Below are positions 10,112 through 33,640 of a stretch of 64,000 nucleotides of DNA, piece after piece. Under the pieces are notes generated by a model, which did no database searches, was not told the DNA's origin, and saw only the letters and a list, made by a program, of their open reading frames with translations. The stretch comes from an uncultured Gemmatimonadota bacterium (GTDB lineage: Bacteria > SM23-81 > DAOVCL01), in the NCBI GenBank assembly GCA_964626665.1, contig CAZVGK010000001.1, positions 64,001 to 128,000 on the forward strand. Direction: 5' to 3'. Numbering within the stretch: the stretch's first letter is position 1; each line of letters begins with the position of its first letter. The translations under genes were made by a program, and so were the position numbers.

Positions 10112-12886
10112 GTGGATTACTCAAAGACCATAAATCTTCCTCGGCCCAGTATCTCGATGAAGGCCAACCTCCCCCATAAGGAACCGGAGCTTTTGCAGTT
10201 CTGGGAAGAGCTAAGGTTCTACCAGAAGCTGCGGGAGGAGAGGAAGGGAGCCCCGCAATACATCCTCCATGATGGCCCCCCCTATTCCAATGGCCATATC
10301 CATATGGGCACAGCCCTAAACAAGGTGGCCAAGGATATAGTAGTGCGGTCGAAGTCTATGGCTGGCTATGACAGCCCCTATATCCCGGGATGGGACAATC
10401 ACGGGATGCCCATTGAGATCGAGGCTACGAAGAGTTCTGGCCAGGGGGATAGGCTTGCCGTAAGGAGGAGCTGTCGGGAGTATGCCCGTAAGTTTGTAAA
10501 TGTGCAAAGGGAGGAGTTCAAGAGGTTGGGGGTTATGGGACAATGGGACGAGCCCTACCTGACGATGTCCCCGAAGTTCGAGGCAAAGATCATCGATGTG
10601 TTTGGGGAACTGGCTGAGAAAGGTTATATTTACAGGGGTTTAAGGCCCATTGACTGGTGTCCCCACTGCCGCACGGCCTTAGCCGAGGCGGAGATCGAAT
10701 ATAAAGAGAAGGAATCGGATTCCATCTTGGTCCGTTTTCCCTTGTTAAAGGACCCCCAGGGGATTTTCGCCGGGGCTAAAGAGGCCTTTGTGCTCATCTG
10801 GACAACCACCCCTTGGACTATACCGGCAAACCAGGCGGTGGTGGTCAACCCAGAATTTGCCTATGTGGTTGCCCTCTCAGGCTCTGAGTCTTATCTGGTG
10901 GCGGAGGAGCTTCTCCCCCAGGTGATGAGATTAGCTGGCAAGGGGAATTACCGAGCGATAAAGAGGATAAAAGGTGAAAAGCTGCAAGGTTTAGTTTTCA
11001 AGCATCCGCTGTTCGATCGCCCCTCCCCCCTCTTCCTCGCCGACCATGTTACCCTGGAGGAGGGAACGGGGATTGTGCATACCGCACCCGGCCATGGGGA
11101 GGAGGACTTCGAGGTGGGGAAGAGAGAGGAATTGGAGGTCCTCTCCGTAGTGGATGAGGCCGGAGTCTTCAACTTTCAGGCGGGCAAATATTCCGGTTTG
11201 AGCTTGGAGCAGGGAAATGCAGCGGTATTAAGGGATCTTTTGGCCAACGGCAACCTCCTCCACCATACACGCATCACCCACAAATACCCTCACTGTTGGA
11301 GATGTCACCAACCCCTCATCTTTCGCGCCACGGTGCAATGGTTTTTATCGGTCGACCACCTCTCGTTAAGGAAGAAGGCACTGGCGGCTATTGAAAAGGT
11401 TAAGTGGGTTCCCTCCTCCAGCCGCAATCGCATCATCTCAATGATGGAGGGCCGCCCGGATTGGTGCCTCTCGCGGCAGCGGAACTGGGGGGTGGGTATT
11501 CCCGTCTTCTACTGTCAGGGGTGTGGAAGAGAGATAATCAGAAAGGACCTCATCGAAAGGGTGCGGGACCTGGTTGCCCAGAAGGGTTCCGATGTTTGGT
11601 TTGAGCTGCCAGCTGAGGAGCTCCTTCCCCCTGATTTTAGGTGTCCTTATTGTGGGGGGAGGGAGTTTGAAAAGGAGAAGGATATCCTCGATGTCTGGTT
11701 CGACTCCGGTTGCAGCCACCTGGTCGTCCTGGAGGGAAACTCTGATTTGAGGTGGCCTGCCGACCTCTACTTGGAGGGGACGGACCAGCACAGGGGATGG
11801 TTTAACCAGTCTCTTCTTATCTCTATGGCTATTAAGGGTTTCCCGCCTTATCGCACCGTGGTGACCAACGGCTGGATGCTTGATGCCCAGGGTAAGGCTA
11901 TGCACAAGTCCCGGGGTAATGTCATCTCCCCTATGGAGATCTACAACAAGTATGGGGCCGATATCTTACGGCTTTGGGTGGCCTCAACTGAGTTCACCTC
12001 GGATATGAAGCTCTCCCCTAGCATCATCCAGCAAGTGGTTGATGCCTATCGCCGCATTCGCAACACCTTCAGATTTCTCTTGGGCAACCTGTATGACTTC
12101 TCTCCGGGGCCCCATCTTCAGCCGCGGGATGGACTCCTGGAGATAGATAGGTTCATCCTCCAAAAGTTGGGTTATCTGGTAAAGGAGGTCTTGGGGTACT
12201 ATGAGAGGTTTGAATTCCACAAGATTTACCATGTTTTCCACAATTTCTGTGCTGTGGACCTCTCCGCCTTCTACTTGGATGTGCTCAAGGATAGGATGTA
12301 TACCTGGGGGAAGGACTCCTTAGAGAGGAGGTCGGGGCAAACCGCCTTTTACCTGCTGGCCAATTCCTTGGCTAAGCTCATTGCCCCCATAATGCCGTTT
12401 ACGGCTGAGGAGATATGGGAGAAAATTCCCTATTCCGGAGATAGGCCAGAGAGCATTCACCTTACCCTCTTCCCAGATCCTGACCTTGGCTGGTTTAATC
12501 CAGCCGAGGAGGAAAATTGGCGGAGGTTGTTGCAGCTGAGGGATGTGGTGCTCAAGGGGATAGAGATAATGCGGGGGGATGGCCTGATTGGCAATTCACT
12601 GGAGGCGAGGGTAACCTTGGAGGCCACCGATCCTGGATTGAGGGAGATTTTGGAGAGGTATGAGGGGGATCTTCCCACCCTCTTTATCTGCTCTCAGGTG
12701 GAGCTCTCCCCCCTTCCCCGGTATACCTGCCAGGATGAGGGGATTGGTTTGAAGGTGTTGGTGGGAAGGGCTCAAGGGGGAAAATGTGTCAGGTGCTGGA
12801 ATTACTCCCCTACAGTGGGGGAGGATGAGGATTTCCCTGGCGTCTGTGCCAGGTGTGCCCAGGTCTTAAGGGAAGGGTGGGGATAA
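10112..12886 (+). CDS. ileS: Isoleucine--tRNA ligase (type 1)
   Basis: HDGPPY, HMGT (HIGH), WTTTPWT, AMHKS (KMSKS), C-terminal CxxC zinc finger. Confidence 0.97.
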   Translation: MDYSKTINLPRPSISMKANLPHKEPELLQFWEELRFYQKLREERKGAPQYILHDGPPYSNGHIHMGTALNKVAKDIVVRSKSMAGYDSPYIPGWDNHGMPIEIEATKSSGQGDRLAVRRSCREYARKFVNVQREEFKRLGVMGQWDEPYLTMSPKFEAKIIDVFGELAEKGYIYRGLRPIDWCPHCRTALAEAEIEYKEKESDSILVRFPLLKDPQGIFAGAKEAFVLIWTTTPWTIPANQAVVVNPEFAYVVALSGSESYLVAEELLPQVMRLAGKGNYRAIKRIKGEKLQGLVFKHPLFDRPSPLFLADHVTLEEGTGIVHTAPGHGEEDFEVGKREELEVLSVVDEAGVFNFQAGKYSGLSLEQGNAAVLRDLLANGNLLHHTRITHKYPHCWRCHQPLIFRATVQWFLSVDHLSLRKKALAAIEKVKWVPSSSRNRIISMMEGRPDWCLSRQRNWGVGIPVFYCQGCGREIIRKDLIERVRDLVAQKGSDVWFELPAEELLPPDFRCPYCGGREFEKEKDILDVWFDSGCSHLVVLEGNSDLRWPADLYLEGTDQHRGWFNQSLLISMAIKGFPPYRTVVTNGWMLDAQGKAMHKSRGNVISPMEIYNKYGADILRLWVASTEFTSDMKLSPSIIQQVVDAYRRIRNTFRFLLGNLYDFSPGPHLQPRDGLLEIDRFILQKLGYLVKEVLGYYERFEFHKIYHVFHNFCAVDLSAFYLDVLKDRMYTWGKDSLERRSGQTAFYLLANSLAKLIAPIMPFTAEEIWEKIPYSGDRPESIHLTLFPDPDLGWFNPAEEENWRRLLQLRDVVLKGIEIMRGDGLIGNSLEARVTLEATDPGLREILERYEGDLPTLFICSQVELSPLPRYTCQDEGIGLKVLVGRAQGGKCVRCWNYSPTVGEDEDFPGVCARCAQVLREGWG

Positions 12887-12989
12887 GGGTGTCGGGGATC
12901 GGTTCTCAGGGATCAGGGGAAATCCTGACAACTGACTGCCGACCCCTGAGAGCTGTAAGCAGGTATGAAATGAGATAGAAGGGGAGGAA

Positions 12990-13385
12990 ATGGATGCTAA
13001 GCACTTGAAGAAGTTTGAGGGATTGCTCCTGGCCAAGAGGAAACAACTCCTTGAATCGATAGGTCATTATGAGGATTCCCTGATGAACTCCTCCCTCAAG
13101 GAGTCTAATGGGAACCTCTCCACCTATGCTGATCATATGGCTGATTTAGGGACCGATGCTCAGGAGAGGGAGAAGGCCTATCACTTTGCCTCCAAGGAGG
13201 GAAGGTTGCTCTACCACATTGATGAGGCCCTGCGGCGGATGCAGGATGGCACCTATGGGAAGTGTGTGGAGTGTGGGGAGGAGATAAGCCTGGATAGGTT
13301 GGAGGCCGTCCCTCATGCCAGGTTGTGCATAAGGTGCAAGCAGCGAGAAGAGGAGAAGAAAAGGCAACTTGACCGCACAGCTTAG
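12990..13385 (+). CDS. dksA: TraR/DksA C4 zinc-finger protein
   Basis: HMADLGTD; YGKCVECGEEI..RLEAVP..LCIRC. Confidence 0.9.
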   Translation: MDAKHLKKFEGLLLAKRKQLLESIGHYEDSLMNSSLKESNGNLSTYADHMADLGTDAQEREKAYHFASKEGRLLYHIDEALRRMQDGTYGKCVECGEEISLDRLEAVPHARLCIRCKQREEEKKRQLDRTA

Positions 13386-13866
13386 CCGGGAGAGGGGAAC
13401 CGCGTTGAGGGGGAGCCTCTACTTCTACTTAGGGATCTTCTTGGCCGTGGTTGGCTTAGATCAGGTCACCAAATATCTGGCCAGCAGATTTCTCTCAGCA
13501 CGGATCTGTGTAGAAGTTGCGGGTTCCGTCTTCAGATTGACCCTGGTGAGGAACCCCGCTGGGGTATTTGGGATAGTGGGTGGGGGGAAGCTATTCTATC
13601 TTTACCTCTCCCTTTTAGCAGTAGGATTGATTGGTTTCTACCTCACCAAAGTTAAGCTCCCTATCTACAGGTTTTCCCTGGCCCTTATCTTGGGTGGGGC
13701 TGTGGGGAACCTGGCCGATCGGATAAGGTTCGGGGAGGTAGTGGATTTCCTGGACTTTGGCCTCGGCTCCTATCGCTGGCCCACCTTTAATCTCGCTGAT
13801 AGTGCAATAACCATTGGCATCTTTCTTCTCTTGTTGGCCAGCTTCAGAAAAGGTAAAAGTCATTAG
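13369..13866 (+). CDS. lspA: Lipoprotein signal peptidase II
   Basis: DQVTK, GAVGNLADR, VVDF, FNLADS. Confidence 0.95.
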   Translation: MTAQLSRERGTALRGSLYFYLGIFLAVVGLDQVTKYLASRFLSARICVEVAGSVFRLTLVRNPAGVFGIVGGGKLFYLYLSLLAVGLIGFYLTKVKLPIYRFSLALILGGAVGNLADRIRFGEVVDFLDFGLGSYRWPTFNLADSAITIGIFLLLLASFRKGKSH

Positions 13867-13954
13867 GGATAACAACGGGATAGCCAAAATTGTTGGCAGA
13901 TTTGGAACAGGTAAGATAGCCGTAGGCTTTATCCTGCGAAAGGAACTACCCAAT

Positions 13955-14390
13955 CTTGTTTTTTGACAATTTTTTTTAACCGCAAGGCTCGCTAAGTAGG
14001 CGCAGAGAACGCAAAGGATTAAATGTAAATTGCAGTATATGCCGGGGAGAGCCTGAAGTCTCCAATACCTTCTTTACTATCCGTGAAATCTGTGGCTGCT
14101 ATTTGTTGGCAACTCTGACCGACTGTGTAGCTCCGTGAGATTCTGTGGTAATTTCACCACGGACTATGCACAGAAAAACAGGAATCAGTTTTCAGGGATC
14201 AAGGATGGACAGCATAAATTCCTTCTTTAATTCTTAATTTTCAATTCATAATTGTTTTTTCCCGTCTAATTCCGTGAATTCCTGGGGTAAGTCTGTTAAT
14301 TCGTGTAGATTCGTCTATTCGTGCCATTCGTGTTCCAGGGGTTCAGTGTAATCTGTGGTTGTTGTTTGATTGTGCTTTTGCCGCGTTGTT
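13955..14390 (+). repeat. Dispersed modular non-coding element, copy A
   Basis: Long blocks shared with 59525-59830 and with the reverse complement of 43787-44102. Confidence 0.8.
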
Positions 14391-14421
14391 TTATTCCGTG
14401 GTGAACCGTTCGGGAAAAAGG

Positions 14422-15384
14422 TTGAAGGTAAAAACCGTAAAGATAGAAGGGATAGGTGAACCCCTCAGGTTAGATGTTTGGCTGGTTAAGAATATGCAAG
14501 GGCTGAGCCGTTCTCGGTTGCAGGGATTGGTAAATGAGGGGTTTATTCTCCTAAACAACAAAAAAGTCAAGCCAAACCATAGGGTCTCCTCTGGAGAGCT
14601 GGTCACTATAACCATCCCTTCCCCTGAGAGGTCAACCCTCCAACCGGAGGAGGGCCCCTTGAATGTCCTCTATGAGGACGAACACCTTTTGGTGATCAAC
14701 AAACCTCCTGGCCTGGCTGTCCATCCCGGCGGTGGGGTGAGGCAGGGGACCCTGGTCAACCTTCTCCTCCATCATTGTAGGGAACTTTCGGGGATAGGGG
14801 GGATAGAGAAACCGGGAATTGTCCATCGCTTGGACAAGGATACAACCGGGGTTATGGTGGTGGCCAAGGATGACTGGACCCATCTGGAGCTCTCCTCCCA
14901 GTTTCAGAGAAGGGAAGTGAAGAAGGAATACCTGGCCCTTGTTTGGGGAGAGCTGGGGGGAGGGGAGGGGGTGATAGAGCTTCCCATAGGTAGAAGCAGG
15001 AAGGACAGGAAGAAGATGGCTGTCCGCGAGCTGGGAGGGAGGGAAGCGCTAACCCGCTACAAGGTTTTAGAGGATTTTGGCCTCTGCTCCTACCTGGCTG
15101 TAAGGCTAGGCACAGGTCGCACCCATCAGATTAGGGTGCATCTCTCCCATATAAGCCATCCCATAGTAGGAGATCCTAAATATGGGGGGAGAAGGAAGAT
15201 GTTAGGTAAACTCCCCCCCTCCCAAAGGGATATGGCCCGGATGCTCTTGGAGCTTCTTCCTCGCCAGGCACTTCATGCTCATCACTTAGGGTTCGTTCAT
15301 CCGATAAGCAGGGAATACTTGGAGTTCTCCAGCCCCCTGTGGGGGGATATGGCCAAGGCATTGGAGCTGCTCAGGTGTAGATGA
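14422..15384 (+). CDS. rluD: RluA/RluD family pseudouridine synthase
   Basis: S4 domain, HRLDKDTTG, TGRTHQIRVH; start moved to TTG 14422 because the upstream extension is repeat DNA. Confidence 0.93.
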   Translation: MKVKTVKIEGIGEPLRLDVWLVKNMQGLSRSRLQGLVNEGFILLNNKKVKPNHRVSSGELVTITIPSPERSTLQPEEGPLNVLYEDEHLLVINKPPGLAVHPGGGVRQGTLVNLLLHHCRELSGIGGIEKPGIVHRLDKDTTGVMVVAKDDWTHLELSSQFQRREVKKEYLALVWGELGGGEGVIELPIGRSRKDRKKMAVRELGGREALTRYKVLEDFGLCSYLAVRLGTGRTHQIRVHLSHISHPIVGDPKYGGRRKMLGKLPPSQRDMARMLLELLPRQALHAHHLGFVHPISREYLEFSSPLWGDMAKALELLRCR

Positions 15385-15579
15385 TAAAATCCACAAAGAG
15401 CGCTGAATGAAGTAAGTCATTGCGAGGCACCGAAAGTGCCGGAGCAATCTCTCTGGATTAGTAGAAATCTCTGTTTTGGACGCTGATAGTCGCAGATTTT
15501 ACAGGATAATTTTTATAAATCCCAAGCATCTGCGTTAATCTGCGTTCCATAAAGCCTGTCTGAAGGGGGCCAAGTTCTG

Positions 15580-16329
15580 ATGCAGATAGGGGAAAAGGTA
15601 TATCATTTTACCGAATTGGACTCCACAAATGATTTCGCTAAGGGACTTATCGCGGGAGCCCCAGAGGGAACGGTGGTAATTGCAGAAAGACAGAGGAGGG
15701 GAAAGGGAAGGTTGGGCAAGAGTTGGTGCTCTCCAGAAGGTGGGCTTTGGTTTTCTATTATCATAGGGAAAAGCAATGGCTTGCTTATTCCCTTGATGGC
15801 TGGGGTAGCCCTCTGTGAGGTCCTGCGGGGACTTGGTTTAAATGTGGGTATAAAATGGCCCAATGACATAGTGATAGGGGGCAAGAAGATAGCTGGAATC
15901 CTGACTGAGCTGGAAGGGAAGAGGATCATTCTGGGAATTGGCCTGAACCTGAATGTATCTCGGTTTCCTGATGAGATAAAGGATGTAGCCACCTCCCTTT
16001 TCCTGGAGATGGGAAGGAGCTATCCCAGGGAAGAGGTGCTCGGATTGATCCTGAAAGGGATTGAGAGATGGTTTGGGGCTTTAAGGGAGGGCAATATCCA
16101 AGGCTTGCTTGATAAGTGGCGGGAATATGCGGCCATCCTGGGGAAGGTGGTGGTGGTGAGAACCCCCAGGAGGATACTGCAGGGGAGGGCAATGGATATA
16201 GCGCAGGATGGAGGGCTTCTTTTGGAACTCCCCGATGGATCCAAAGAGAAAGTTTTGGCCGGTGAATGTAGCCTCAGGGTGGGGACCGTGGGTTCTCCGA
16301 TTCCCGAGCCAGCCAGCAAAGGGGGTTGA
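15580..16329 (+). CDS. birA: Biotin--protein ligase without HTH domain
   Basis: DSTN, GKGRLGKSW, IKWPND, KIAGIL. Confidence 0.93.
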   Translation: MQIGEKVYHFTELDSTNDFAKGLIAGAPEGTVVIAERQRRGKGRLGKSWCSPEGGLWFSIIIGKSNGLLIPLMAGVALCEVLRGLGLNVGIKWPNDIVIGGKKIAGILTELEGKRIILGIGLNLNVSRFPDEIKDVATSLFLEMGRSYPREEVLGLILKGIERWFGALREGNIQGLLDKWREYAAILGKVVVVRTPRRILQGRAMDIAQDGGLLLELPDGSKEKVLAGECSLRVGTVGSPIPEPASKGG

Positions 16330-16423
16330 GGGGGGACTGGCCTCTTCCCCAAGAGAGTAGCCCTAACTTGTTGGGACGTTTGAAGAGGTCAAGCCAGGAA
16401 ATTAGTAAACGGAGGGAACTGAA

Positions 16424-16945
16424 TTGAAAATAGGGACGCTGCAGGTCTATACTGGGGAGGGGAAGGGGAAGACCACCGCTGCCCTGGGTCAGGCCCTGCG
16501 GGCAGTGGGCCATGGACAGCAGGTGATTGTGATCCAATTTATGAAGGGTCAAATAAACTATGGTGAACTGAAGGCGGTGGAGGATGTTCCCGGATTGAAG
16601 ATTGAGCAGTATGGTTTGCCCACCTTTGTGGAGCGGGGTAATCCCTCCGCAGAGGATAGGGAATGGGCCAGGAAGGGGATGGAGCGGGCCAAAAAGGTCA
16701 TCAGGGAGGCAAGATATGACATGGTCGTCTTGGATGAGATAAGTGTGGCCGTGGACTATGGATTGGTTGGCTTAGATGAAGTCCTCGGTTTAATTAAGGC
16801 CAGGCCCCCGGAGATGGAACTTGTTCTCACCGGCAGATATGCGGCCAAGGAGATAATTGAGCTTGCTGACCTGGTTACGGAGATGAAGGAAATAAAGCAC
16901 CACTATCAAAAGGGCATCCAGGCCAGGGAGGGAATCGAGTTCTAA
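16424..16945 (+). CDS. cobO: Cob(I)alamin adenosyltransferase
   Basis: YTGEGKGKTTAALG, LDEI, TGR, ADLVTEM, GIEF. Confidence 0.93.
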   Translation: MKIGTLQVYTGEGKGKTTAALGQALRAVGHGQQVIVIQFMKGQINYGELKAVEDVPGLKIEQYGLPTFVERGNPSAEDREWARKGMERAKKVIREARYDMVVLDEISVAVDYGLVGLDEVLGLIKARPPEMELVLTGRYAAKEIIELADLVTEMKEIKHHYQKGIQAREGIEF

Positions 16946-17081
16946 GGGGTTCAAGATTGAGGATATGGCCTTGTAGTATGAGAATTCCCACCTATTGGAC
17001 AGGATATACAGGATTGCCAGGATATGAATTGATTATGTAAATCCCGTTTATCCCGTCAAAAAAGCCTTGTCGTTGGTTTCC

Positions 17082-17127
17082 CCAATTCAGTGCCGTCAGG
17101 GCCCCTGCCCTGACGGCACTGAATTGG
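17082..17127. repeat. Perfect 21-bp-arm inverted repeat
   Basis: CCAATTCAGTGCCGTCAGGGC-CCCT-GCCCTGACGGCACTGAATTGG; core related to the 7775 and 8042 palindromes. Confidence 0.9.
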
Positions 17128-17355
17128 ATGTAAGTAGGGACAGGTCTTCAGCCCTGTCCGAAAGAGTGCTGCCCTTGCGCCGCTCTAATTCTCTGCCTAT
17201 GATGAATCAGAGCTAAGGCAGAATATTGGAAATGTTAATTGGTATTTAAAGATGTGACTCCGATTTATGCCAAAAAGGAGAAAAACATCACACAGAACAA
17301 GTTTGAGCGGTTTAACGGTCAAAGTAGAGGGAATTGTATTTTTTAAAACTGCTTT

Positions 17356-17530
17356 TAGCCCATATTCTGGAAAATAAATTTTGGATTCGTAACTTATTGA
17401 TTTTCAAGGGAAAATTTTCTAGATTTTCATGGACTACATTCAATTGGCGATTATTAAAAAACTGTCTAACTGGTTGATTTTTAAGTAGTTGTTCGTATTT
17501 GACCTTAAATTTTTCCCGGAATGTAGGCTA
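17356..17530. mobile_element. Putative MITE or IS-end remnant
   Basis: Terminal inverted repeats TAGCCCATATTCTGGAAAA / TAGCCTACATTCCGGGAAA (15 of 19, mismatches all transitions); no ORF. Confidence 0.55.
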
Positions 17531-17636
17531 CAGCATAAAAATGCTACCATAACATCCAGGGGCCAGTAGCAACTTTTTCATAGGTGACCTCAGTGACAGA
17601 ATGGCAAAAAATCTTTCTCAAATCTGCATTTTTTTC

Positions 17637-17665
17637 TTGACAAATGCTTACTGAATTCTTATAAT
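17637..17665 (+). promoter_or_regulatory. Consensus sigma70 promoter of the aromatic super-operon
   Basis: TTGACA-17-TATAAT, exact consensus. Confidence 0.9.
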
Positions 17666-17730
17666 ATATTAGAAAAGGGGGCTGAGGTGTCTTTAAGAAT
17701 GTCAGGACAGATTTTTTGAAGGGAAGTAGA

Positions 17731-17886
17731 ATGATTTTTTCGGTTGGTTCGTCTAAACATGTTGTCAATTATAAGAACCAGTGGCACCATTTGTCCATGG
17801 GGGCATGGTGTCTTTGGATGTGGCACATTTGGTACTATAGTAGCTTACAGAGACCAACCGGAAAAGGATTGAGAGCAATGAAATAG
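17731..17886 (+). CDS. Attenuator leader peptide, 51 aa, Trp/His/Tyr-rich
   Basis: MIFSVGSSKHVVNYKNQWHHLSMGAWCLWMWHIWYYSSLQRPTGKGLRAMK; purine-rich RBS; lies between promoter and terminator. Confidence 0.85.
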   Translation: MIFSVGSSKHVVNYKNQWHHLSMGAWCLWMWHIWYYSSLQRPTGKGLRAMK

Positions 17887-17908
17887 AAAATACAACAGAG
17901 TGAAGGTT

Positions 17909-17943
17909 AAAACCCACATCCGATTTCGGTTGTGGGTTTTTTT
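17909..17943 (+). terminator. Intrinsic terminator (attenuator)
   Basis: AAAACCCACA-T-CCGA-TT-TCGG-T-TGTGGGTTTTTTT. Confidence 0.88.
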
Positions 17944-18105
17944 GTTCGTTCGCCAGAGGGCAGAGTGAGAGTTTCTTCAAAAGTCAAGTTTGATGGTTAG
18001 GCAAAAAGTCAAAAAATGCTCTTGTAACATTGTGAACCTAAAATGCAACTTATTTAAAATGAATATGTTGCTTACCTTGGTTTAATCCGTTATAGCACCA
18101 AAACG

Positions 18106-18814
18106 GACTTTTTAGCAAAATTGACTAAAACCAAAATAACTGTTGCAGGTGGTGTGAGTTCAATTGATGAGATAAGAGAAGTTGCAAGAATAGGAGTGGA
18201 TGTACAACTTGGTATGGCACTGTATACTGGTAAGATAAATCTCGCAGAAGCATTTATTGAATCGCTCAACTGGAAAGGTGAACTCATACCAACCATTACA
18301 CAGGATCATAGAGGTCAGGTTCTTTTGCCTCGCTTACAGTAACAGGGATTCTCTCAGGAAGGCATTTGAAAAAGGCAAAATGTGGTATTTTTCAAGGTCA
18401 CGAAATAAGCTCTGGATGAAAGGCGAAACATCCGGCAATATACAAGAGCCTATAAGATTAAGGGCAGATGGCGATAGGGATGCACTGCTTGCCACAGTAA
18501 AGCAACAGGGTGTTGCGTGCCATACAGGTGAGTATTCCTGTTTCGGCGCTAAAAAGTTCAGCCTTTATGAACTCTATGAAGTTGTAAAAGACAGGATAGA
18601 AAATCCAAGACCTGAATCATACACCGCAGAACTAACAGATGATATGCTGAGCGATAAGATATTGGAAGAAGCCAAAGACCTTATAGAGGCAAGAGATAAA
18701 GATGGAATAATACGGGAAGCAGCAGATCTTATATATTTTCTGAAGATTCTTCTAGCCAAGAATGGGATCAAAATAAATGATGTATTTAACGAATTAAGGA
18801 GGCGTAGAAGATGA
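18106..18814 (+). pseudogene. hisIE: 5'-truncated, frameshifted HisA-like/HisI/HisE fusion
   Basis: ITVAGGV..GMALYTG barrel end; YFSRSRNKLWMKGETSGN and ACHTGEYSCF (HisI); KILEEA..EAADLIY (HisE); frameshift near 18325; DCD changed to DGD. Confidence 0.88.
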
Positions 18815-19821
18815 AAATAAAAGAAGCAATAAAAAAAATTATTGAACTGAATGACCTAACCCAGCAGGAAGCCTTTGAGGTCGCAATAGAGATTATGAGT
18901 GGTGGTGCAACAGACGCCCAGATAGCTGCTCTGCTTACAGCATTGAGAATGAAAGGTGAAACAATAGACGAGATAACTGGATTTGTCAGGGCAATGAGAG
19001 ATAAGGTAACCCCTATTGAATGTAGTTCTAAAGATCTTGTTGACACCTGTGGCACAGGCGGTGATAGGTCCGGAACATTTAATATCTCAACACTCTCTGC
19101 GTTCGTCGCAGCCGGCGCTGGCTGTAGGGTGGCAAAACATGGAAACCGGTCTGTATCCAGTAGATGTGGAAGTGCTGACCTTCTTAAAGCTCTGGGTGTA
19201 AATATTGAGATTACACCAAAAAGAATGGTAAGCTGTATTGATGAGACAGGTATCGGTTTTTTGTTTGCACCAATTCTACACAAAGCTATGAAATACGCAA
19301 TAGGGCCAAGGAGAGAAGTTGGAGTGAGAACAATTTTTAATATACTTGGTCCCCTTACCAATCCTGCAGGTGCAAGGCGGCAGCTTTTAGGGTTATTTAG
19401 CGATGAACTTACAGAGCCCATCGCAAATGTGTTAAAGAAACTTGGTTCTGAACACTGCCTAGTAGTTCATGGTGAGGATGGACTTGATGAGATAACCATA
19501 ACAGGGAAGACATTCGTGAAGGAATTACGTAATGGGGTGGTGGAGAGTTACTGCATAGAACCAGAAGATTTTGGAATTCAAAAGGGAACAATTGATGATA
19601 TTAGGGGTGGCGATGTAAACGATAATGTTAGGATTGCTCTGGATATTCTCAATGGTGGCAAGGGACCTAAGAGAGATATAACGGTTTTTAATGCCGGTGC
19701 AGCCATCTATGTAGGTGGTAAGGCAGCATCGCTTGCAGAAGGTATCGAACTTGCAAAGGAATCAATAGATTCTGGCAAGGCAATTGAGAAACTCCAGATG
19801 CTGAGGGAAATGACGCGATGA
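18811..19821 (+). CDS. trpD: Anthranilate phosphoribosyltransferase
   Basis: DTCGTGGD..FNIST, KHGNRSVSS..GSAD. Confidence 0.97.
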   Translation: MKIKEAIKKIIELNDLTQQEAFEVAIEIMSGGATDAQIAALLTALRMKGETIDEITGFVRAMRDKVTPIECSSKDLVDTCGTGGDRSGTFNISTLSAFVAAGAGCRVAKHGNRSVSSRCGSADLLKALGVNIEITPKRMVSCIDETGIGFLFAPILHKAMKYAIGPRREVGVRTIFNILGPLTNPAGARRQLLGLFSDELTEPIANVLKKLGSEHCLVVHGEDGLDEITITGKTFVKELRNGVVESYCIEPEDFGIQKGTIDDIRGGDVNDNVRIALDILNGGKGPKRDITVFNAGAAIYVGGKAASLAEGIELAKESIDSGKAIEKLQMLREMTR

Positions 19822-20591
19822 ATTTACTGAAAAGAATAGTTTCATACAAAAGAGAAGAAGTGAAGAAGAGAAAAAGCATTGTTTCCGTTGGAACTCTTAA
19901 AAGTGGAAATTTCCCAAAAGTGAGAGATTTCAAATCAGTGCTTGAAAAAGAAGGTATATCAATAATTGCCGAAATAAAGCGGATGTCCCCCTCAGCAGGT
20001 ATTATAAGAGAGGATTTTGACCCTACCCAAATGGCAAGAACATATGAAGAGAATGGGGCAAGTGCCATTTCAGTGCTTACAGACAGAAAATTCTTTGGTG
20101 GTAGTATTGATTATGTAATTGCGGTTAAGAACGAGGTGAATCTGCCCGTATTAAGAAAAGAGTTTATCATTGATGAGTATCAGATTTATGAATCACGCTA
20201 CATTGGTGCTGATGCAGTTCTCCTTATTGCAAGGATATTGACTTCTGCTGAACTGGGCAGGTTCATTTCGATAGCAAAAGAATTGGGACTGGCATGCCTT
20301 GTTGAGGTTCATACACGGAATGAACTTGAAGAGGTTTTATCAACAATCACAGAGATAATAGGAATAAACAACAGAAACCTTGATACACTTCAGATTGATA
20401 TTAAAACTTCACTTGAATTGAAGAAGATGACCCCAGAAGGGTATATTACTGTGAGTGAAAGCGGGATAAAAACAAGAGAGGATGTCCTAAAACTTCAAGA
20501 AGCTGGCTTTGATGCTATACTTGTTGGTGAAACACTTATGCGGACAAAAAATTTAGGAAATAAACTTAAAGAACTTTTGGGAGAAGTATAG
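19818..20591 (+). CDS. trpC: Indole-3-glycerol phosphate synthase
   Basis: IIAEIKRMSPS, SVLTD, GINNRNL, VSESGI. Confidence 0.97.
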   Translation: MNLLKRIVSYKREEVKKRKSIVSVGTLKSGNFPKVRDFKSVLEKEGISIIAEIKRMSPSAGIIREDFDPTQMARTYEENGASAISVLTDRKFFGGSIDYVIAVKNEVNLPVLRKEFIIDEYQIYESRYIGADAVLLIARILTSAELGRFISIAKELGLACLVEVHTRNELEEVLSTITEIIGINNRNLDTLQIDIKTSLELKKMTPEGYITVSESGIKTREDVLKLQEAGFDAILVGETLMRTKNLGNKLKELLGEV

Positions 20592-21674
20592 ATGGAAATC
20601 CTTGATGAATTGAGAAAAAAGGTGAGCGAGATTGATAGAGAGATTATAAAGTTGATAGCAAAGAGGCTCGAAATTACAAAAAAGATCGGTAAAAAGAAAA
20701 AGGAGGAAGGTATACCTTTGCGAAACTGGGAGATAGAGAAAGCAGTAATTGAAAATGCAACAGAATTTGCTGCTGAATTAGGGATATCTCCTGCTCTTAT
20801 CAAATCACTTATGCAGCAACTTATAACGGAATCCCGTATACAGCAGGAGATACTTCATTACTCTGCCTACAAAGGGGATAAAGAGAATGTTCTGATTATT
20901 GGTGGATTAGGAGAGATGGGCAAATGGTTTTCGTATTTCTTCCAGAATCAGGGCCATAATGTATCGATTTATGACATCAAAGGCGAATCAGAGGATTTTA
21001 AATCATACGGAAGTCTGGAAGAGGGGATTGAGGAAGCATCATTTACTCTTATTGCCACATCACTTGAGGTAGTTCCGGAGATAATAAACAAAATAACAGA
21101 ACTGGGGTTCAAAGGTATTGTATTTGATATAGCAAGCTTGAAAGGACATTTAGAGGATTCTATCAAAAGGGCAACTGATAAGAGAATTTCCATTACCAGC
21201 ATTCATCCTATGTTTGGTTCAAATGTACGAACACTTTCCGATAAGGTAATTTGCCTCTGTGATTGCGGAGATAAGGAAGCAAATCAGAAAGTTGAATTTC
21301 TCTTCAAAGGCACAGCCGCATCGATTGTGAAACTATCGCTTGAGGAGCATGATCGTGTTATTTCTTTTGTGCTGGGACTTTCTCACATAATAAATATCAT
21401 ATTTATGAAGGTACTCATGGAGGGAGGCTATAAGTACGACGAATTGAAGAAGATTGCAAGTACTACCTTCCTTTCTCAAATGGTAACTGCAACCAGTGTA
21501 ATTAAGGAGAATCCACATCTCTATTATGAAATACAAAAATACAATCCATTTAAAGGAGACTTATACGAAAAGTTAAAAGAAGCTACAAAATCAATTACCG
21601 ATATTGTCTCATCAGCAAACAAGCCAGAGTTCATAGAAATCATGGAAAAAGGTAAGTATTGGTTAGGAGAATGA
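20592..21674 (+). CDS. tyrA: Chorismate mutase / prephenate dehydrogenase fusion
   Basis: N-terminal mutase LRKKVSEIDREII; IIGGLGEMG, DIASLK, HPMFG. Confidence 0.92.
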   Translation: MEILDELRKKVSEIDREIIKLIAKRLEITKKIGKKKKEEGIPLRNWEIEKAVIENATEFAAELGISPALIKSLMQQLITESRIQQEILHYSAYKGDKENVLIIGGLGEMGKWFSYFFQNQGHNVSIYDIKGESEDFKSYGSLEEGIEEASFTLIATSLEVVPEIINKITELGFKGIVFDIASLKGHLEDSIKRATDKRISITSIHPMFGSNVRTLSDKVICLCDCGDKEANQKVEFLFKGTAASIVKLSLEEHDRVISFVLGLSHIINIIFMKVLMEGGYKYDELKKIASTTFLSQMVTATSVIKENPHLYYEIQKYNPFKGDLYEKLKEATKSITDIVSSANKPEFIEIMEKGKYWLGE

Positions 21675-22273
21675 TGACAAAGATAAAGATATGTGGTGTA
21701 ACAAATATTGAGGATGCAATGATGATTGCTGAACTCGGTGCAGATGCCTTGGGCTTTGTTTTTGCTCCATCAAAGAGAAGGATAAGCCCGCAGGATGCAA
21801 AAGAAATTATAAAAAGACTTCCACCATTCGTCACAACCGTTGGTGTATATATGGACGCAGAGATTGATGAGGTAAATCAGGTAACCGAATACACTGGGAT
21901 AGATGTTATTCAACTTCATGGAAATGAGCCACCGACCCATTGCGATAGGCTCAAAAAGAAGGTAATAAAAAGAATCTCGGTATGTGATAATGATACTACT
22001 GAGATGCTTATTTCAAGGATGGAAAGATACCGAGTTCCTGCCTATCTTTTGGACCCTGGGGCAGGCAGTGGTAAGGTATTTAATTGGGAAAAAGCAGTGG
22101 GTATTGATTTACCTCTTATCATTGCGGGAGGACTTACCCCGGATAATGTAAAAACTGTTGTACGATTGTTAAAGCCTTACGGGGTGGACGTCTCTTCAGG
22201 AGTAGAACAGTTTCCTGGTAAGAAGAATAAACAAAAGGTGAAAAGATTTATAGAGGAGGTGAGGTCTTGTTGA
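21671..22273 (+). CDS. trpF: Phosphoribosylanthranilate isomerase
   Basis: KICG, QLHGNE, AGGLTPDNV, VDVSSGVE. Confidence 0.96.
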   Translation: MMTKIKICGVTNIEDAMMIAELGADALGFVFAPSKRRISPQDAKEIIKRLPPFVTTVGVYMDAEIDEVNQVTEYTGIDVIQLHGNEPPTHCDRLKKKVIKRISVCDNDTTEMLISRMERYRVPAYLLDPGAGSGKVFNWEKAVGIDLPLIIAGGLTPDNVKTVVRLLKPYGVDVSSGVEQFPGKKNKQKVKRFIEEVRSC

Positions 22274-23043
22274 TTACAGGAATAATAGGTTATCCCTTAG
22301 AGACTACGCTTTCACCCAAGATGCATAATGCAGCATTTAAGGAATTGGGAATAGATGGTGTTTATCTTCGCTTGCCTGTTTTAAAAGAAAGGTTGAAAGA
22401 GGCAACGCTGGGTCTTCGTGCGCTCGGTTTCAGGGGAGTGAATGTAACAGTTCCTCACAAAGAGACTATAGTGGAATATCTTGATGATACTACAGAGGAG
22501 GTGAAAAGGGTTGGTGCTGTGAATACGATCTTGATAGAGGATTATAAACTTATCGGGCACAACACAGACATATATGGATTTAAGGAGTCTTTGATGGAAT
22601 ATAAAATTGATATCACAGATAAAGATCTTCTAATTGTAGGGGCAGGTGGTGCTGCCCGTGCCTGTGCTCATGTAATAAATTCGATGAAACCAAAGAGGTT
22701 CATCATTACAGATAAGATTCTTGAAAGAGCAGAGGTCGTTTCAAATTTATTTGATGCAGAAATAATTGAGCCTGCTGAAATTGAGAATATTATTCCTGAA
22801 ATGGATATTGTAATAAATGCAACCCCCATAGACTTTCAAGAAATGATATTACCAGTTATGAAACGAGGAGCTGTCTACTACGACGTAAATTATAAATTTA
22901 GAAAGTTAAAAGGAAGGGATATTAAGATGATAAATGGACTTTTGATGCTTGTACTTCAGGGTGCGCAATCTTTCCATTTATGGACGGGAAGGGAAGCACC
23001 AATAGAGGTAATGAAAAATATGGTAGGGTTTGAAAATGATTAG
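22267..23043 (+). CDS. aroE: Shikimate dehydrogenase
   Basis: LSPKMHN, NVTVPHK, GAVNT, GAGGAA. Confidence 0.95.
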   Translation: MLITGIIGYPLETTLSPKMHNAAFKELGIDGVYLRLPVLKERLKEATLGLRALGFRGVNVTVPHKETIVEYLDDTTEEVKRVGAVNTILIEDYKLIGHNTDIYGFKESLMEYKIDITDKDLLIVGAGGAARACAHVINSMKPKRFIITDKILERAEVVSNLFDAEIIEPAEIENIIPEMDIVINATPIDFQEMILPVMKRGAVYYDVNYKFRKLKGRDIKMINGLLMLVLQGAQSFHLWTGREAPIEVMKNMVGFEND

Positions 23044-24178
23044 ATGGTTGACTTCGGGTGAATCGCACGGAAAGGGATTGTCTGTTATCATCGAGGGATT
23101 ACCTGCTGGTATACCCGTGGATGTTGAATTCATCAACGATGAACTTCTGCGAAGGCAGAAAGGATATGGTCGTGGAAAGCGGATGACAATAGAAAAGGAT
23201 CGCGTGGAAGTATTGTCCGGGGTGAGATACGGAAAGACTATCGGTTCCCCTGTTAGTCTGTTTATTAGTAATAAAGATTATGAAAACTGGAAGGATATTA
23301 TGAAAATAGAGCCTGGCAAAGAGACTGATAAGGTGACCTCTCCCAGGCCAGGGCATGCCGACCTTGCAGGAGTGCTGAAGTATGGCTTGGATGATATAAG
23401 AAATGTGATTGAGCATGCCTCTGCAAGGGAGACTGCGGCAAGAGTTGCAGCAGGTGCAATTCTTAAATTGTTTTTAAAAGAGTTTAAGATCGAATTTTAC
23501 TCCCATACAATTGCAATCGGTGGTATAAGCATAAATGAGAGAAAAAGAGAAATTGATAAATTAGAGAATACACCACTGCGGTGTATGGATCCAGAGAAAG
23601 AAAAAGAGATGATCAAACTTATTGATGAGGCAAAAAGTAGAGGCGATTCGATCGGCGGAATAAGTGAGGTTGTCGCCCTTGGTGTTTGCCCCGGGCTTGG
23701 AAGTTACTCTCATTACGATAAACGATTGGACGCAAGGATTGCTCATGCAATGCTTTCTATCCCGTCTGTGAAAGGTATTGAGATAGGTGAGGCCTTTGAG
23801 AATTCTAAAAGATTTGGATCGGATGTCCATGATGAAATATTCTACAGTGATGAAAAGGGTTTCTATCATAAAACAAACAGGGCTGGTGGAATAGAAGGTG
23901 GTGTCAGTAATGGTGGGGATATTGTTGTCCGCCTTGCAATAAAACCCATACCAACACTTAGAAAGCCTTTTCATTCGGTAGACATATTGACAAAAGAAGA
24001 GCGACTTGCCCAGAAGGAACGGGCTGATGTATGTGTCGTTCCTGCTGTGGGGGTGATTGGTGAGGCGATGCTCGCCTTTGTTATTTCCGATGCCTTCATT
24101 GAGAAATTCGGTGGGGACTGCCTCGATGATATAAAATCACACTATGATTTATATATGAAGAGGATAAGAGATGTCTGA
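23036..24178 (+). CDS. aroC: Chorismate synthase
   Basis: TSGESHG, PRPGHAD, SARETAAR, GGIEGG. Confidence 0.96.
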   Translation: MIRWLTSGESHGKGLSVIIEGLPAGIPVDVEFINDELLRRQKGYGRGKRMTIEKDRVEVLSGVRYGKTIGSPVSLFISNKDYENWKDIMKIEPGKETDKVTSPRPGHADLAGVLKYGLDDIRNVIEHASARETAARVAAGAILKLFLKEFKIEFYSHTIAIGGISINERKREIDKLENTPLRCMDPEKEKEMIKLIDEAKSRGDSIGGISEVVALGVCPGLGSYSHYDKRLDARIAHAMLSIPSVKGIEIGEAFENSKRFGSDVHDEIFYSDEKGFYHKTNRAGGIEGGVSNGGDIVVRLAIKPIPTLRKPFHSVDILTKEERLAQKERADVCVVPAVGVIGEAMLAFVISDAFIEKFGGDCLDDIKSHYDLYMKRIRDV

Positions 24179-25757
24179 TAATATAATTCTTATTGGATTT
24201 ATGGGAACAGGAAAGGATGTTGTTGGGAAGCAGATCGCAAGAAAAACGGGAATGAGTTTTCTTTCAGTTGATGAATTCATAGAGCTGAGGGAGAATAAAA
24301 CGATAAGCAGGATATTTGAGGAATCTGGTGAAGGGTATTTCAGGAGGTTAGAAAAAGAGGCGGTTCTGGCAATAAAGGATTTGAAGAATACAGTTGTAGC
24401 AACTGGGGGAGGAATTGTTATTGATGAGGAAAATCGGCGGCTTCTTTCTAAAATGGGTACAGTAATTCATCTTGAAGCAAAACTGGATCTCATTGAAGAA
24501 AGACTCAGAGATGATTTTAATCGTCCACTGATACAGGATAAAAAGAACATAAAGAGAATATTTAAAGAAAGGAAGGGTATATACGATTTTGCAGAACTAA
24601 AAATTGATACATCATTTAAGAATCCCCATGAGATTGCAGATGAAATAATCCAAAAAGGAAATGTAAGAAAGAGAGACAGGAACTTCCCACTTGATACAAT
24701 CGTTGTGAAATCAGAATTAAAAAACTATCCTGTTCATGTTGGATCGGGCATTCTTACAAGCAATAAAAATTTCATTAGACTGCTGGATCTGAATACCAAT
24801 AGAACAATAGTGATTACCAATCCACTTGTGGGCGCTTTATATCTACAGTCTATTGAGGATGCCCTTAATGAGAACAAAGTCAATCCCATTCACTTTATCG
24901 TACCTGATGGAGAGGAGTATAAGACATTAGAGATGGCTACCCGTATCTATGATTTTCTCTTGGAAAATAAGGTAACTAGATCAGAGCCAATAATTGCCCT
25001 TGGTGGCGGTGTAATAGGAGATCTTGCTGGTTTTGTTGCCGCTACATACAAGAGGGGAGTACCTCTCATCCAGATTCCGACAACACTACTTGCCCAGGTC
25101 GATGCATCTATTGGTGGTAAGACTGGTGTTGACCATAAACTGGGGAAGAATATGATTGGAGCCTTCTATCAACCCGATTCGGTAATTACCGATGTGGCCG
25201 TGCTCTTAAGTCTTTCAGAGAGGGAATTTAGAAATGGTCTGGCAGAGGTGATAAAATACGGAATTATAAAGGATCAAAAACTCTTTTCTTTGCTTGAAAA
25301 AAAGCATAACGAAATTTTAGACCGTGATATCAATATCCTTACTGAAATTATATCGAGGTGTATACAGATAAAGAGAAAAATTGTACAAGAGGATGAAAGG
25401 GAGGAGAAGGGCATAAGGGAGATTTTGAACTATGGGCATACAATAGGCCATATTATTGAGACGCTCACGGGTTATTCACAATACAGGCATGGTGAGGCAG
25501 TAGCAATTGGTATGGTTGAGGAAGCCAGAATGGCCGTGAGGAACGGCGTTTTGGAGGAAGAGGATTTAAAAAGGTTATCAGAGCTGATTTCATCATACGG
25601 GTTGCCTGTGGAGATACCCGAGTCCATAAGTAGGAATGATGTAAGGGGAAAGATACTTCAGGACAAGAAGGTCAGGCATGGAGAAATAAGAATGCCCATT
25701 CCTGAAGGGATAGGAAGAGTTGTCTTAAGGGAGGTACGATGCGAAACATTGTTGTAA
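24171..25757 (+). CDS. aroKB: Shikimate kinase / 3-dehydroquinate synthase fusion
   Basis: GFMGTGK..ATGGG, then GGGVIGD, PTTLLAQVD, LNYGHT, HGEAV. Confidence 0.95.
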   Translation: MSDNIILIGFMGTGKDVVGKQIARKTGMSFLSVDEFIELRENKTISRIFEESGEGYFRRLEKEAVLAIKDLKNTVVATGGGIVIDEENRRLLSKMGTVIHLEAKLDLIEERLRDDFNRPLIQDKKNIKRIFKERKGIYDFAELKIDTSFKNPHEIADEIIQKGNVRKRDRNFPLDTIVVKSELKNYPVHVGSGILTSNKNFIRLLDLNTNRTIVITNPLVGALYLQSIEDALNENKVNPIHFIVPDGEEYKTLEMATRIYDFLLENKVTRSEPIIALGGGVIGDLAGFVAATYKRGVPLIQIPTTLLAQVDASIGGKTGVDHKLGKNMIGAFYQPDSVITDVAVLLSLSEREFRNGLAEVIKYGIIKDQKLFSLLEKKHNEILDRDINILTEIISRCIQIKRKIVQEDEREEKGIREILNYGHTIGHIIETLTGYSQYRHGEAVAIGMVEEARMAVRNGVLEEEDLKRLSELISSYGLPVEIPESISRNDVRGKILQDKKVRHGEIRMPIPEGIGRVVLREVRCETLL

Positions 25758-26176
25758 TACATGGACCAAATCTTAATCTTCTAGGGAAGCGAAAACCAGA
25801 GGTATACGGGACCCTGACTCTTGATGAGTTGAACAGGAAGATAGAAGCCTTTTCCGAAGAGAAGAATATCGTGGTGCATATCATTCAGTCCAACAGTGAG
25901 GGCGATATCATCGGCGCGATTCATGATGCTGGTGGTACTCACGGAATAGTGATCAACCCTGGCGGGTATACCCACACCTCGGTTGCCATCAGGGATGCTG
26001 TGGAAGCTGTTGGGGTTCCGGTTGTGGAGGTTCACATCAGCAATATCTATGCGAGGGAAGCGTTCAGGCAGAAATCTGTGATTGCTCCGGTTTGCATCGG
26101 ACAGATAACAGGACTGGGCTGGGTTGGTTACCTATTGGCAATTGAATACCTTATGAAAATGAGTGAGGGAAAATGA
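25739..26176 (+). CDS. aroQ: Type II 3-dehydroquinate dehydratase
   Basis: [25 protein letters not shown]. Confidence 0.96.
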
Positions 26177-27354: not shown

Positions 27355-28118
27355 GAATAAGGGAAACGTTTGATATCCTTAACCAGGCCGGAGAGATGTT
27401 ATTTATACCTTATATCACTGCTGGCTATCCTTCACTTGAGGAGTCAATAAACATTTTCCGTATGCTCTGCGAGTACGGTGCAGACATAATAGAAATAGGT
27501 GTTCCTTTCTCTGATCCTATTGCAGATGGTCCGACGATTCAGTATTCGTCGCAGATTGCCCTACAAAATGGCGTGACACTGAAAAAATTGATGGGCAGGT
27601 TGAGGGACGTGAAGATAGACAAGCCATTGATACTTATGTCCTATCTGAACCCATTACTGGCGTATGGAAAAGAAAATCTCTATAGAGATATGAAGGAAAT
27701 CGGTCTGTCAGGAATAATTGTTCCTGATATGCCTGCTGAGGAATCTGACGAATGGCTCTCTCTATCAAAGGCTTATGATATTGATATTATTTTTCTCGTT
27801 GCCCCCACATCCTCTGATGAGAGGATAAGATTTATTGCTGAACGGTCTTGCGGTTTTATATATTGCGTTAGTATCACAGGAACAACAGGAATGAGGGATG
27901 AATTACCAGGCGGGCTTTTAAGATTTATCAGGAAAATCAAGAAACTAACAGATGTGCCCGTTGCAGTTGGTTTTGGTATTTCAACACCTGAACAGATATT
28001 AACACTAAAAGGAGAGATAGATGGTGTTATTGTAGGAAGTAGAATAATAGAAGCCATAAGACGAGGAGAGAATTTAAAAGAAATTGTAGCGAAGTTGAAA
28101 AGTACAACAAGGAGGTAG
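27351..28118 (+). CDS. trpA: Tryptophan synthase alpha chain
   Basis: [26 protein letters not shown]. Confidence 0.97.
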
Positions 28119-28120
28119 AT

Positions 28121-29952: not shown

Positions 29953-29956
29953 CGGT

Positions 29957-33591: not shown

Positions 33592-33627
33592 TTGACTTTT
33601 TTTGATATCTGATATATTATATATCAG
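33592..33627 (+). promoter_or_regulatory. Promoter with overlapping operator palindrome
   Basis: TTGACT-17-TATTAT; CTGATATAT-T-ATATATCAG at 33609-33627 covers the -10 box. Confidence 0.7.
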
Positions 33628-33640
33628 TTGGGAGGTAAAA

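Follow-up and report, generated by a model that had tools for sequence, protein, structure and literature searches.

The 64,000-nucleotide (nt) stretch of DNA considered here, referred to below as the window, corresponds to positions 64001–128000 of contig C1 of an uncultured Gemmatimonadota bacterium (the source genome, G000). Between positions 17637 and 17943 of the window, upstream of an operon for aromatic amino acid biosynthesis, lies a leader unit that consists of a promoter, a 51-codon leader open reading frame (ORF) and an intrinsic terminator. As judged from sequence comparison and RNA folding models, this unit is probably a leader-peptide attenuator that senses Trp. It would be of a new, long type, acquired together with the aro/trp genes and still gating them. 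A leader-peptide attenuator had been proposed at this place in a preliminary description of the window, and the proposal is strengthened by homologues that keep the 51-codon ORF and four invariant Trp codons directly before trpE. The family to which the leader belongs is small and had not been catalogued before, and a leader of 51 codons is unusually long.

The leader unit is made up of the following parts.

17637–17665, + strand: sigma-70-type promoter with −35 TTGACA, a 17-nt spacer and −10 TATAAT, matching the consensus at 12/12 positions.
17718–17726, + strand: Shine–Dalgarno-like purine-rich stretch of the leader ORF, read off the sequence and unpaired in the minimum free energy (MFE) fold.
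17731–17886, + strand: leader ORF of 51 codons, from the ATG at 17731 to the TAG at 17884–17886, with 5 Trp, 4 His and 3 Tyr codons.
17782–17790, + strand: W18-H19-H20, an early Trp codon with adjoining His codons that are specific to G000.
17806–17838, + strand: the Trp cluster W26, W29, W31 and W34, followed by Y35 and Y36, the four TGG codons being invariant.
17909–17943, + strand: intrinsic terminator, with a hairpin at 17909–17940 (3′ arm 17927–17940) followed by a U-run.

The promoter, the leader ORF with its particular Trp, His and Tyr content and the terminator all formed part of the preliminary description, and each of them is present. A promoter scan of 16800–18900 gave 6 promoter-like sites, among which the 12/12 promoter is the sole perfect match; the consensus used is of the sigma-70 type and may not be that of the host. 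The terminator hairpin has a predicted stability of −18.7 kcal/mol and its stem begins 22 nt past the leader stop codon, as had been described. The entire leader RNA has an MFE of −75 kcal/mol (z −2.33).

Trp accounts for 9.8% of the leader (5/51 codons) versus 1.44% of the proteome (P = 8e-4). The four His codons of the G000 leader compare with a proteome His content of 1.68% (P = 0.011), and Tyr is not enriched (3/51 codons versus a proteome background of 3.58%, P = 0.28). The genome contains 5936 ORFs of 40–70 codons that begin with ATG; at least five Trp codons are found in 126 of these, and a combined Trp, His and Tyr count of at least 12 in 17. The leader ORF alone combines at least five Trp, four His and three Tyr codons, thresholds that were set post hoc on the leader ORF itself. 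The sequence of the region is reproduced in other assemblies. A metagenome contig is identical to the window over 17320–22883, and Logan contigs without differences cover 17378–19400 (X1) and, in pieces, 17418–17769 and 17831–18121 (X21); the pieces from X22 cover solely the region downstream of the leader. The Logan contigs contain no variants in 17593–17989.

On the opposite strand, an antisense promoter-like site is located inside the leader ORF at 17797–17768 (−), with TGGACA, an 18-nt spacer and TATAAT (11/12). The idea of a type I toxin–antitoxin system, which arose from this site, was rejected: no antisense terminator was found, and the C-terminal part of the peptide changes frame in a homologue.

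Homologues of the leader are found in another phylum. When 1.84 billion representatives were searched exhaustively with phmmer, 3 proteins of 51–56 amino acids were retrieved with E values from 1.4e-7 to 7.6e-5, namely P0001 (51 amino acids, 47% identity, E 1.4e-7), P0002 (56 amino acids) and P0003 (51 amino acids). These three were again the only matches when 5.77 billion sequences were searched with a profile. Among 401 genomes searched in six frames, only G000, G076 and G239 gave strong matches (E <= 6e-29), the last two being the sole 2 genomes of their phylum in the collection searched. Eleven weak six-frame matches (18–23 bits) were dropped as noise; no aro or trp gene lies within ~1.5 kb of them. 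The family profile matched none of 401 relatives of G041 (G041 itself included). Apart from G076 and G239 themselves, the order and phylum of G076 gave no further members, nor did G001–G006. A metagenome scan with the leader peptide gave a sole match, a contig identical to the window.

In G076 and G239 the leader ORF is 51 codons long, as it is in G000. It is followed by the terminator and then by trpE, the start of which lies ~30 nt past the terminator U-run, and the gene order continues with chorismate mutase–prephenate dehydrogenase (CM-PDH), trpG, trpD, trpC, trpF and aroE. In G076 these genes are followed by aroC, aroK-aroB, aroQ, trpB, trpA, DAHP synthase and aroA; the G239 contig ends before this point. 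The enzymes of the two genomes share 37–71% identity with those of the window. The −35 hexamer is invariant in all three genomes, the −10 hexamer reads TAnAAT with the 17-nt spacing kept, and purine-rich stretches occur in G076 and G239 at the place equivalent to the Shine–Dalgarno-like stretch of G000. Absence of the ORF from homologues had been named beforehand as the result that would speak against attenuation; the ORF is instead kept, directly before trpE. The leader had initially been read as an orphan at a repeat-rich junction, foreign to the operon, on the grounds that the genome has no other copy of it, that two same-genus genomes gave no DNA match and that it lies behind a synteny break after cobO. 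This reading was overturned by the protein-level homologues ahead of trpE.

The leader RNA contains four segments that can enter alternative pairings.

17736–17749, + strand: segment 1, the 5′ strand of a long-range helix P1 (anti-antiterminator), paired with 17852–17865 in the MFE fold.
17814–17823, + strand: antiterminator strand specific to G000, the first of the two put forward originally, pairing with 17914–17923.
17852–17873, + strand: segment 2, the 3′ strand of P1 and the 5′ strand of the conserved antiterminator.
17913–17932, + strand: segment 3, common to the terminator and the antiterminators.

The three DNA sequences (G000, G076 and G239) show a mean column identity of 77% in the alignment. 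Invariant columns make up 86% of segment 1, 89% of segment 2 plus GGAU (17852–17869) and 77% of the terminator. The corresponding values are 26% for the 5′ untranslated region, 8% for the spacer 17839–17851 and 28% for 17870–17908, which runs from the leader stop to the terminator. A one-base gap in G239 shifts the frame of segment 2 (D-Q-P-E-K-D versus P-T-G-K-G). As this segment is invariant and yet read in another frame in G239, it is conserved as RNA and not as peptide.

The four Trp codons of the cluster are invariant in all four peptides and in all three DNA sequences, while the codons between them vary, third positions included. Within codons 8–36 there are seven conserved residues, and these hold four of the five Trp residues (hypergeometric P = 0.0067). 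An early Trp codon is also found in every member, as W18 in G000 and G076 and as W21-W22 in G239. At least one Tyr codon lies within 3 codons after W34 in 4/4 members. The His counts of the family members are 4, 1, 2 and 1, with no invariant His position. Regulatory codons that are cognate to the operon product, enriched and conserved are therefore seen for Trp; co-sensing of Tyr by the leader is possible and sensing of His is unlikely. The bias towards Trp, His and Tyr that was to be looked for in homologues is thus found for Trp, in four invariant codons, and not for His, and the original suggestion that the leader senses His is not upheld by the family. The two properties expected of a multi-amino-acid attenuator, conserved codons for each amino acid and the pathways in the operon, were not found for His.

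The preliminary description had pointed to three complementarities, all of which are present, with 10 pairs (17814–17823 with 17914–17923), 9 pairs after extension (17855–17860 with 17927–17932) and 14 pairs (17736–17749 with 17852–17865). The last of these is helix 1:2 (P1), which is matched by 8/1000 shuffles and is conserved, 95% of alignment cells being paired across the three genomes. The second, formerly proposed as an antiterminator of its own, continues into the 5′ arm of the terminator and proves to be the outer part of a conserved 17-pair helix 2:3. This antiterminator helix is formed by 17855–17863 with 17924–17932, 17866–17869 with 17918–17921 and 17870–17873 with 17913–17916, and 96.1% of its cells are paired versus 17–49% when the partner is slid. 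The terminator (3:4) is paired in 100% of cells. Helix 2:3 contains one compensatory pair (UA/UG/CG), as does the terminator (AU/GU/GC); both involve position 17916, whose two partners are identical to each other in every genome. The 1:2, 2:3 and 3:4 pairings share bases and are mutually exclusive as far as pairing potential is concerned.

The remaining complementarity is peculiar to G000. Its 10 pairs have a predicted stability of −16.1 kcal/mol, and a pairing as good is found in 69/2000 dinucleotide shuffles of the upstream RNA. All 10/10 pairs form in G000 and 7/10 in each of G076 and G239, so that this proposed antiterminator is complete in the source genome and only partial in the homologues. 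Four columns of 17814–17823 and one of the terminator arm set G000 apart from both homologues, and in each case the pairing is better in G000.

The consequences of ribosome position were modelled in two ways. In the first, the RNA behind the ribosome was removed and the transcript ended at 17932. With the ribosome at W26–Y36, helix 2:3 then has a probability of 0.69–0.73 in G000, 0.97–0.99 in G076 and 0.74–0.81 in G239, and from about codon 40 this probability drops to 0. The G000-specific helix reaches 0.84–0.95 for stalls at codons 7–24, again with the RNA behind the ribosome dropped. This range includes W18-H19-H20, and the earlier idea that a stall there leaves the first antiterminator free is reproduced by the model. 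From codon 26 on the G000-specific helix is impossible because the ribosome covers it. When the 5′ RNA is kept and the ribosome is placed at the stop codon, the antiterminator has a probability of 0 and P1 one of 0.70–0.93 in all three genomes. In equilibrium folding of G000 the terminator wins in every modelled state (0.95–0.96); antitermination, if it occurs, would thus have to be kinetic, as the classical model has it.

We infer from these models that ribosome stalling switches the structures. Transcription would begin at the perfect promoter and a ribosome would translate the leader. With plentiful Trp-tRNA the ribosome would run across segment 2 to the stop codon; segment 2 would then be masked, or paired back with segment 1, and the terminator at 17909–17940 would form and stop transcription. 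With scarce Trp-tRNA the ribosome would stall at W18 or in the cluster W26–W34, possibly also at Y35-Y36, and the free segment 2 could pair with the terminator 5′ arm, the loop and the first bases of the 3′ arm (17913–17932), blocking the terminator and permitting read-through. In G000 the second, lineage-specific antiterminator would be usable only with a stall before codon 25.

The features found downstream of the leader unit are as follows.

17955–18000, + strand: trpE relic, with the ribosome-binding site of trpE and, from the GTG start codon at 17965, 11 codons followed by a stop.
17990–18113, no strand assigned: repeat C, native to the host genus, at the trpE′/hisA′ break.
18112–18814, + strand: hisA′-hisIE relic, the last ~50 HisA residues fused to HisIE, frameshifted.
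18811–33202, + strand: aro/trp operon of 15 genes, assigned by Pfam, with tightly packed ORFs.

The operon comprises trpD, trpC, CM-PDH, trpF, aroE, aroC, aroK-aroB, aroQ, trpB, trpA, DAHP synthase, pheA, aroA, trpE and trpG. It has a G+C content of 0.423 versus 0.489 for the genome. The G+C content falls from ~0.50–0.53 to ~0.39 at 17000 and recovers near 47000, giving a ~30-kb block of 0.37–0.45 versus ~0.50–0.55 around it. This low-G+C block, which ends beside two tRNA genes (46800–46954), may be a genomic island. In same-genus and same-phylum genomes that are 90–97% complete, trpD was not found in G001, G002 and G003, only weak partial matches were obtained in G004 and G006 (27–28% identity, residues 2–151), and trpC was not found in G001, G002, G004 and G006. 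The aro/trp genes look horizontally acquired. Behind the operon (33602–37635) follow genes for a GntR/FCD regulator, a glycyl-radical enzyme activase and a pyruvate-formate-lyase-like glycyl radical enzyme, and further on an RNase P RNA of bacterial class A is located at 50245–50625 (307 bits).

Synteny with the same-genus genome G002 covers 10112–16945 at 67–88% amino-acid identity and stops right after cobO (16945; locus L104, contig C34 of G002). In G002 the next gene follows ~35 nt after cobO. Its G000 counterparts are scattered on contigs C24, C6 and C54, and the locus has therefore been rearranged as well as inserted into. The stretch from 17000 to 18120 is a mosaic of host-genus repeats, with only 17593–17989 being unique. 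It includes repeat A (17353–17543, ~180 bp), repeat B (17529–17592, ~64 bp) and repeat C (~124 bp), all of which have copies at 73–90% identity on several G000 contigs and in the same-genus genomes G001 and G002. Copies of repeat C are found on contig C8 of G000 and, in three places, in G002, a genome that lacks all of these aromatic genes.

The three repeats resemble miniature inverted-repeat transposable elements and break assemblies, contigs ending at repeat A. A palindrome of ~30 bp that is similar to repetitive extragenic palindromic elements occurs at 17082–17166; it has dozens of genome copies at 91–97% and gives rise to spurious microRNA-model matches in Rfam.

The trpE relic aligns with the trpE start of G239 and G076 up to ~17990. 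As the trpE start is kept behind the terminator and cut at repeat C, the leader must once have been joined to trpE and severed from it at a host repeat. Intact trpE and trpG are now at the far end of the operon. In G076 and G239 the leader is positioned directly upstream of the operon; in G000 it is separated from it by a repeat and a pseudogene and lies 868 nt upstream of trpD. No + strand promoter above 9/12 and no + strand terminator was found in 17944–18811. With no other strong promoter ahead of trpD, the leader promoter is thus the best candidate to drive the operon, and read-through would reach trpD in G000. The history of the locus may then be that the unit came with the horizontally acquired aro/trp genes, was later cut from trpE at the native repeat, and now stands ahead of a dead hisA′-hisIE fragment as the only strong promoter.

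The histidine relic begins with a HisA part in frame 1 from ~18112, which matches profile positions 182–231 of 231 and is joined to HisI. The HisI frame is broken at a T-run (18323–18326) that is identical in contigs of three runs. The closest relatives (69%, 59% and 56% identity) are intact HisA-HisIE fusions of 414–426 amino acids that end a his operon with no trpD behind; such fusions are found at his operon ends in L019 (5242–6486) and L020 (4884–6164). The gene order of the window is not shared by the relatives chosen by HisIE or TrpD similarity (L019–L021, L105, L106 and L108). A similar HisA-like sequence is found directly before hisIE in many spirochaete loci (L022–L035).

No histidinol dehydrogenase gene (hisD) was found in G000, which is 99.65% complete, or in either congener, and matches to the HisA/HisF family in G000 are weak and partial only. 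Histidine auxotrophy is thus probable for the host genus. The stop codon of hisIE and the start of trpD overlap (18811–18814), and a his–trp junction therefore once existed in the donor lineage. The combined aromatic and histidine operon of the preliminary description is not sustained, its his part being a truncated, frameshifted relic in a genome in which no hisD was found.

Several observations weigh against the Trp-sensing attenuator. The covariation is anecdotal, being drawn from 3 DNA sequences, and shuffled controls reach it in 348–349/500 trials. The antiterminator extension of G000 contains an A–C mismatch, and before the 3′ arm emerges this extension adds ~−3 kcal/mol versus −4.5 to −6.6 in the homologues. 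When the 5′ RNA is kept, P1 wins with a single ribosome at W31, leaving the antiterminator a probability of 0.13 in G000 and 0.28 in G239. A stall at W26–Y36 frees helix 2:3 when the 5′ RNA is removed, and a single ribosome at W31 is insufficient in G000 and G239 when it is kept. Two or three stacked ribosomes raise the antiterminator to 0.72–0.78 with the 5′ RNA kept, and the switch would then depend, on our assumption, on ribosome stacking or on P1 being sterically excluded. At that transcript length the antiterminator of G076 forms with no ribosome (0.90). In the simple model codons 1 to ~38 are all permissive, so that only codon content would make the leader specific for Trp. The runs that hold the stretch number 23, all of salt-marsh DNA, with no RNA run among them.

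A repeat and a pseudogene part the G000 leader from the first intact gene, and the leader could for this reason be a stranded relic whose transcripts end at the terminator, the trpD–trpG operon being driven by another, unrecognised promoter. This is the main rival explanation and is regarded as unlikely. The cut in trpE after 11 codons at repeat C, the decay of the adjoining hisA′-hisIE, a conserved antiterminator that is weakest in G000 and a terminator that wins in all modelled states at equilibrium speak for it. Against it stand a promoter, start codon, ORF, Trp codons, three helices and terminator that are all intact, the 12/12 promoter being better than those of the homologues. The G000 differences that raise the pairing of 17814–17823 from 7 to 10/10 look like selection and not like decay, and the scan gave no other + strand promoter above 9/12 before trpD.

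The G000 copy may be a two-window attenuator, with two antiterminators and two stall sites, although we consider this doubtful. A stall at W18-H19-H20 would free 17814–17823 to pair with 17914–17923 and one at W26-W34-Y35-Y36 would free 17855–17873 to pair with 17913–17932. The first window, which contains the His codons, would have evolved ahead of a composite his–trp operon, of which the dead hisA′-hisIE piece overlapping trpD would be a remainder. The long leader would give room for a queue of stalled ribosomes to cover segment 1 at the start codon, and this queue, in place of a single stalled ribosome, would set the switch. The model originally proposed, in which Trp, His and Tyr are all sensed via two antiterminators that open an aromatic plus histidine operon, is improbable. 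Both antiterminators do exist and answer different stall windows in the models, H19-H20 stand right after W18 among four His codons that exceed the background (P = 0.011), and the hisIE/trpD overlap testifies to a his–trp transcription unit once present in the donor lineage. Against this, no His position is invariant among the family counts of 4, 1, 2 and 1, Tyr codons are not in excess of the background (P = 0.28), and the histidine genes of G000 are reduced to the truncated, frameshifted hisIE and weak, partial HisA/HisF matches, with no hisD found.

It is very improbable that the main product acts in trans, either as a terminated RNA of ~270 nt or as a 51-amino-acid Trp-rich peptide with a function of its own. 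A strong promoter and an efficient terminator would yield an abundant structured short RNA, and trans functions of this kind are reported for the RNA rnTrpL and the peptide peTrpL of the Sinorhizobium meliloti Trp attenuator (PMC6614838, PMC7298713). Apart from the Trp codons and the stretches that form the RNA helices, however, little of the present peptide is conserved; in G239 its C-terminal part is read in another frame, and a function in trans would be compatible with attenuation. An accidental ORF between promoter-like and terminator-like sites in AT-rich junk, as might be suspected from the repeat mosaic of the intergenic stretch, the chance ORFs of 55–74 codons on its other strand and the 126 genome ORFs of similar length with at least five Trp codons, is already refuted by the same architecture before trpE in another phylum.

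A Trp-sensing attenuator that still gates its operon is the explanation that we favour. It would represent a natural experiment, in which a host repeat has separated a regulatory cassette from its first gene while the cassette is still intact and carries a new antiterminator. The biosynthetic supraoperon has apparently moved between phyla with its own promoter and attenuator. The searched relatives of the host are apparently unable to make tryptophan, trpD and trpC not having been found in 4–5 same-genus and same-phylum genomes.

Proteobacteria and Actinobacteria account for most known cases of classical attenuation. If the present reading is true, the mechanism extends to two scarcely sampled phyla. 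The leader resembles classical trpL of Escherichia coli and Salmonella, and the trp attenuators of Corynebacterium and Streptomyces, in having a promoter-proximal ORF with Trp codons and a terminator before trpE. Similarly, it shares with trpL the mutually exclusive 1:2, 2:3 and 3:4 pairings and a terminator that is favoured by a ribosome at the stop codon. The general mechanism and a list of the operons controlled in this manner are given in PMC1183508, and classical attenuators with double or triple UGG repeats are described for actinobacterial trp operons (PMC1262725). The literature search, which covered the titles and abstracts of the matches listed, with subscription journals outside its range, gave no description of a long Trp-rich or Trp/His/Tyr leader. 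Rfam searches of 16900–18300 with Trp_leader (RF00513), T-box and other leader and riboswitch families gave no match at E <= 10, and none was obtained in the homologous leader loci either.

The leaders of the ilvGMEDA, ilvBN and thr operons of enterobacteria are multivalent. The present leader resembles these in that one leader could report more than one amino acid, Tyr following the last conserved Trp in 4/4 members and the operon making Tyr, Phe and Trp. It differs in that only Trp is conserved and enriched, Tyr being not enriched and His not conserved. The ilvGMEDA, ilvBN and thr operons are listed as attenuator-controlled in PMC1183508. T-box (tRNA-Trp) and TRAP control in Firmicutes likewise place a terminator/antiterminator switch in the leader RNA ahead of trp genes. 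TRAP needs 11 (G/U)AG triplets (PMC3064811). Unlike TRAP leaders, the RNA of 17672–17945 has no (G/U)AG array spaced 2–3 nt, its longest chain being one triplet.

Short leaders of the classical kind were also seen before trpE in two related uncultivated lineages, at 14008–13952 (−) of L106 (18 codons) and at 16261–16184 (−) of L108 (25 codons). Each has two Trp and three Tyr codons and no Rfam match. They have in common with the present leader a TTGACA promoter, a short ORF with a C/Y-W-x-W-Y motif and a strong terminator followed by trpE. In contrast to the 51-codon leader they carry only these two Trp codons within 18 and 25 codons, and they are not detected as homologues by the family profile.

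The form of the present leader is unusual in three respects: it is 51 codons long, the Trp codons are dispersed, and helix 1:2 runs from the start codon and encloses the sensing codons. Whereas the trpL peptide of Sinorhizobium has 14 amino acids (10.1101/606483), the leader described here has 51 codons. Its five to six Trp codons, unlike those of classical trpL, are not tandem and are dispersed as W-x2-W-x-W-x2-W plus an early one. Segment 1 is located at the start of the ORF, and helix 1:2 encloses the regulatory codons in a loop of ~100 nt instead of containing them. Finally, unlike classical trpL, the present leader fronts a whole aromatic supraoperon.

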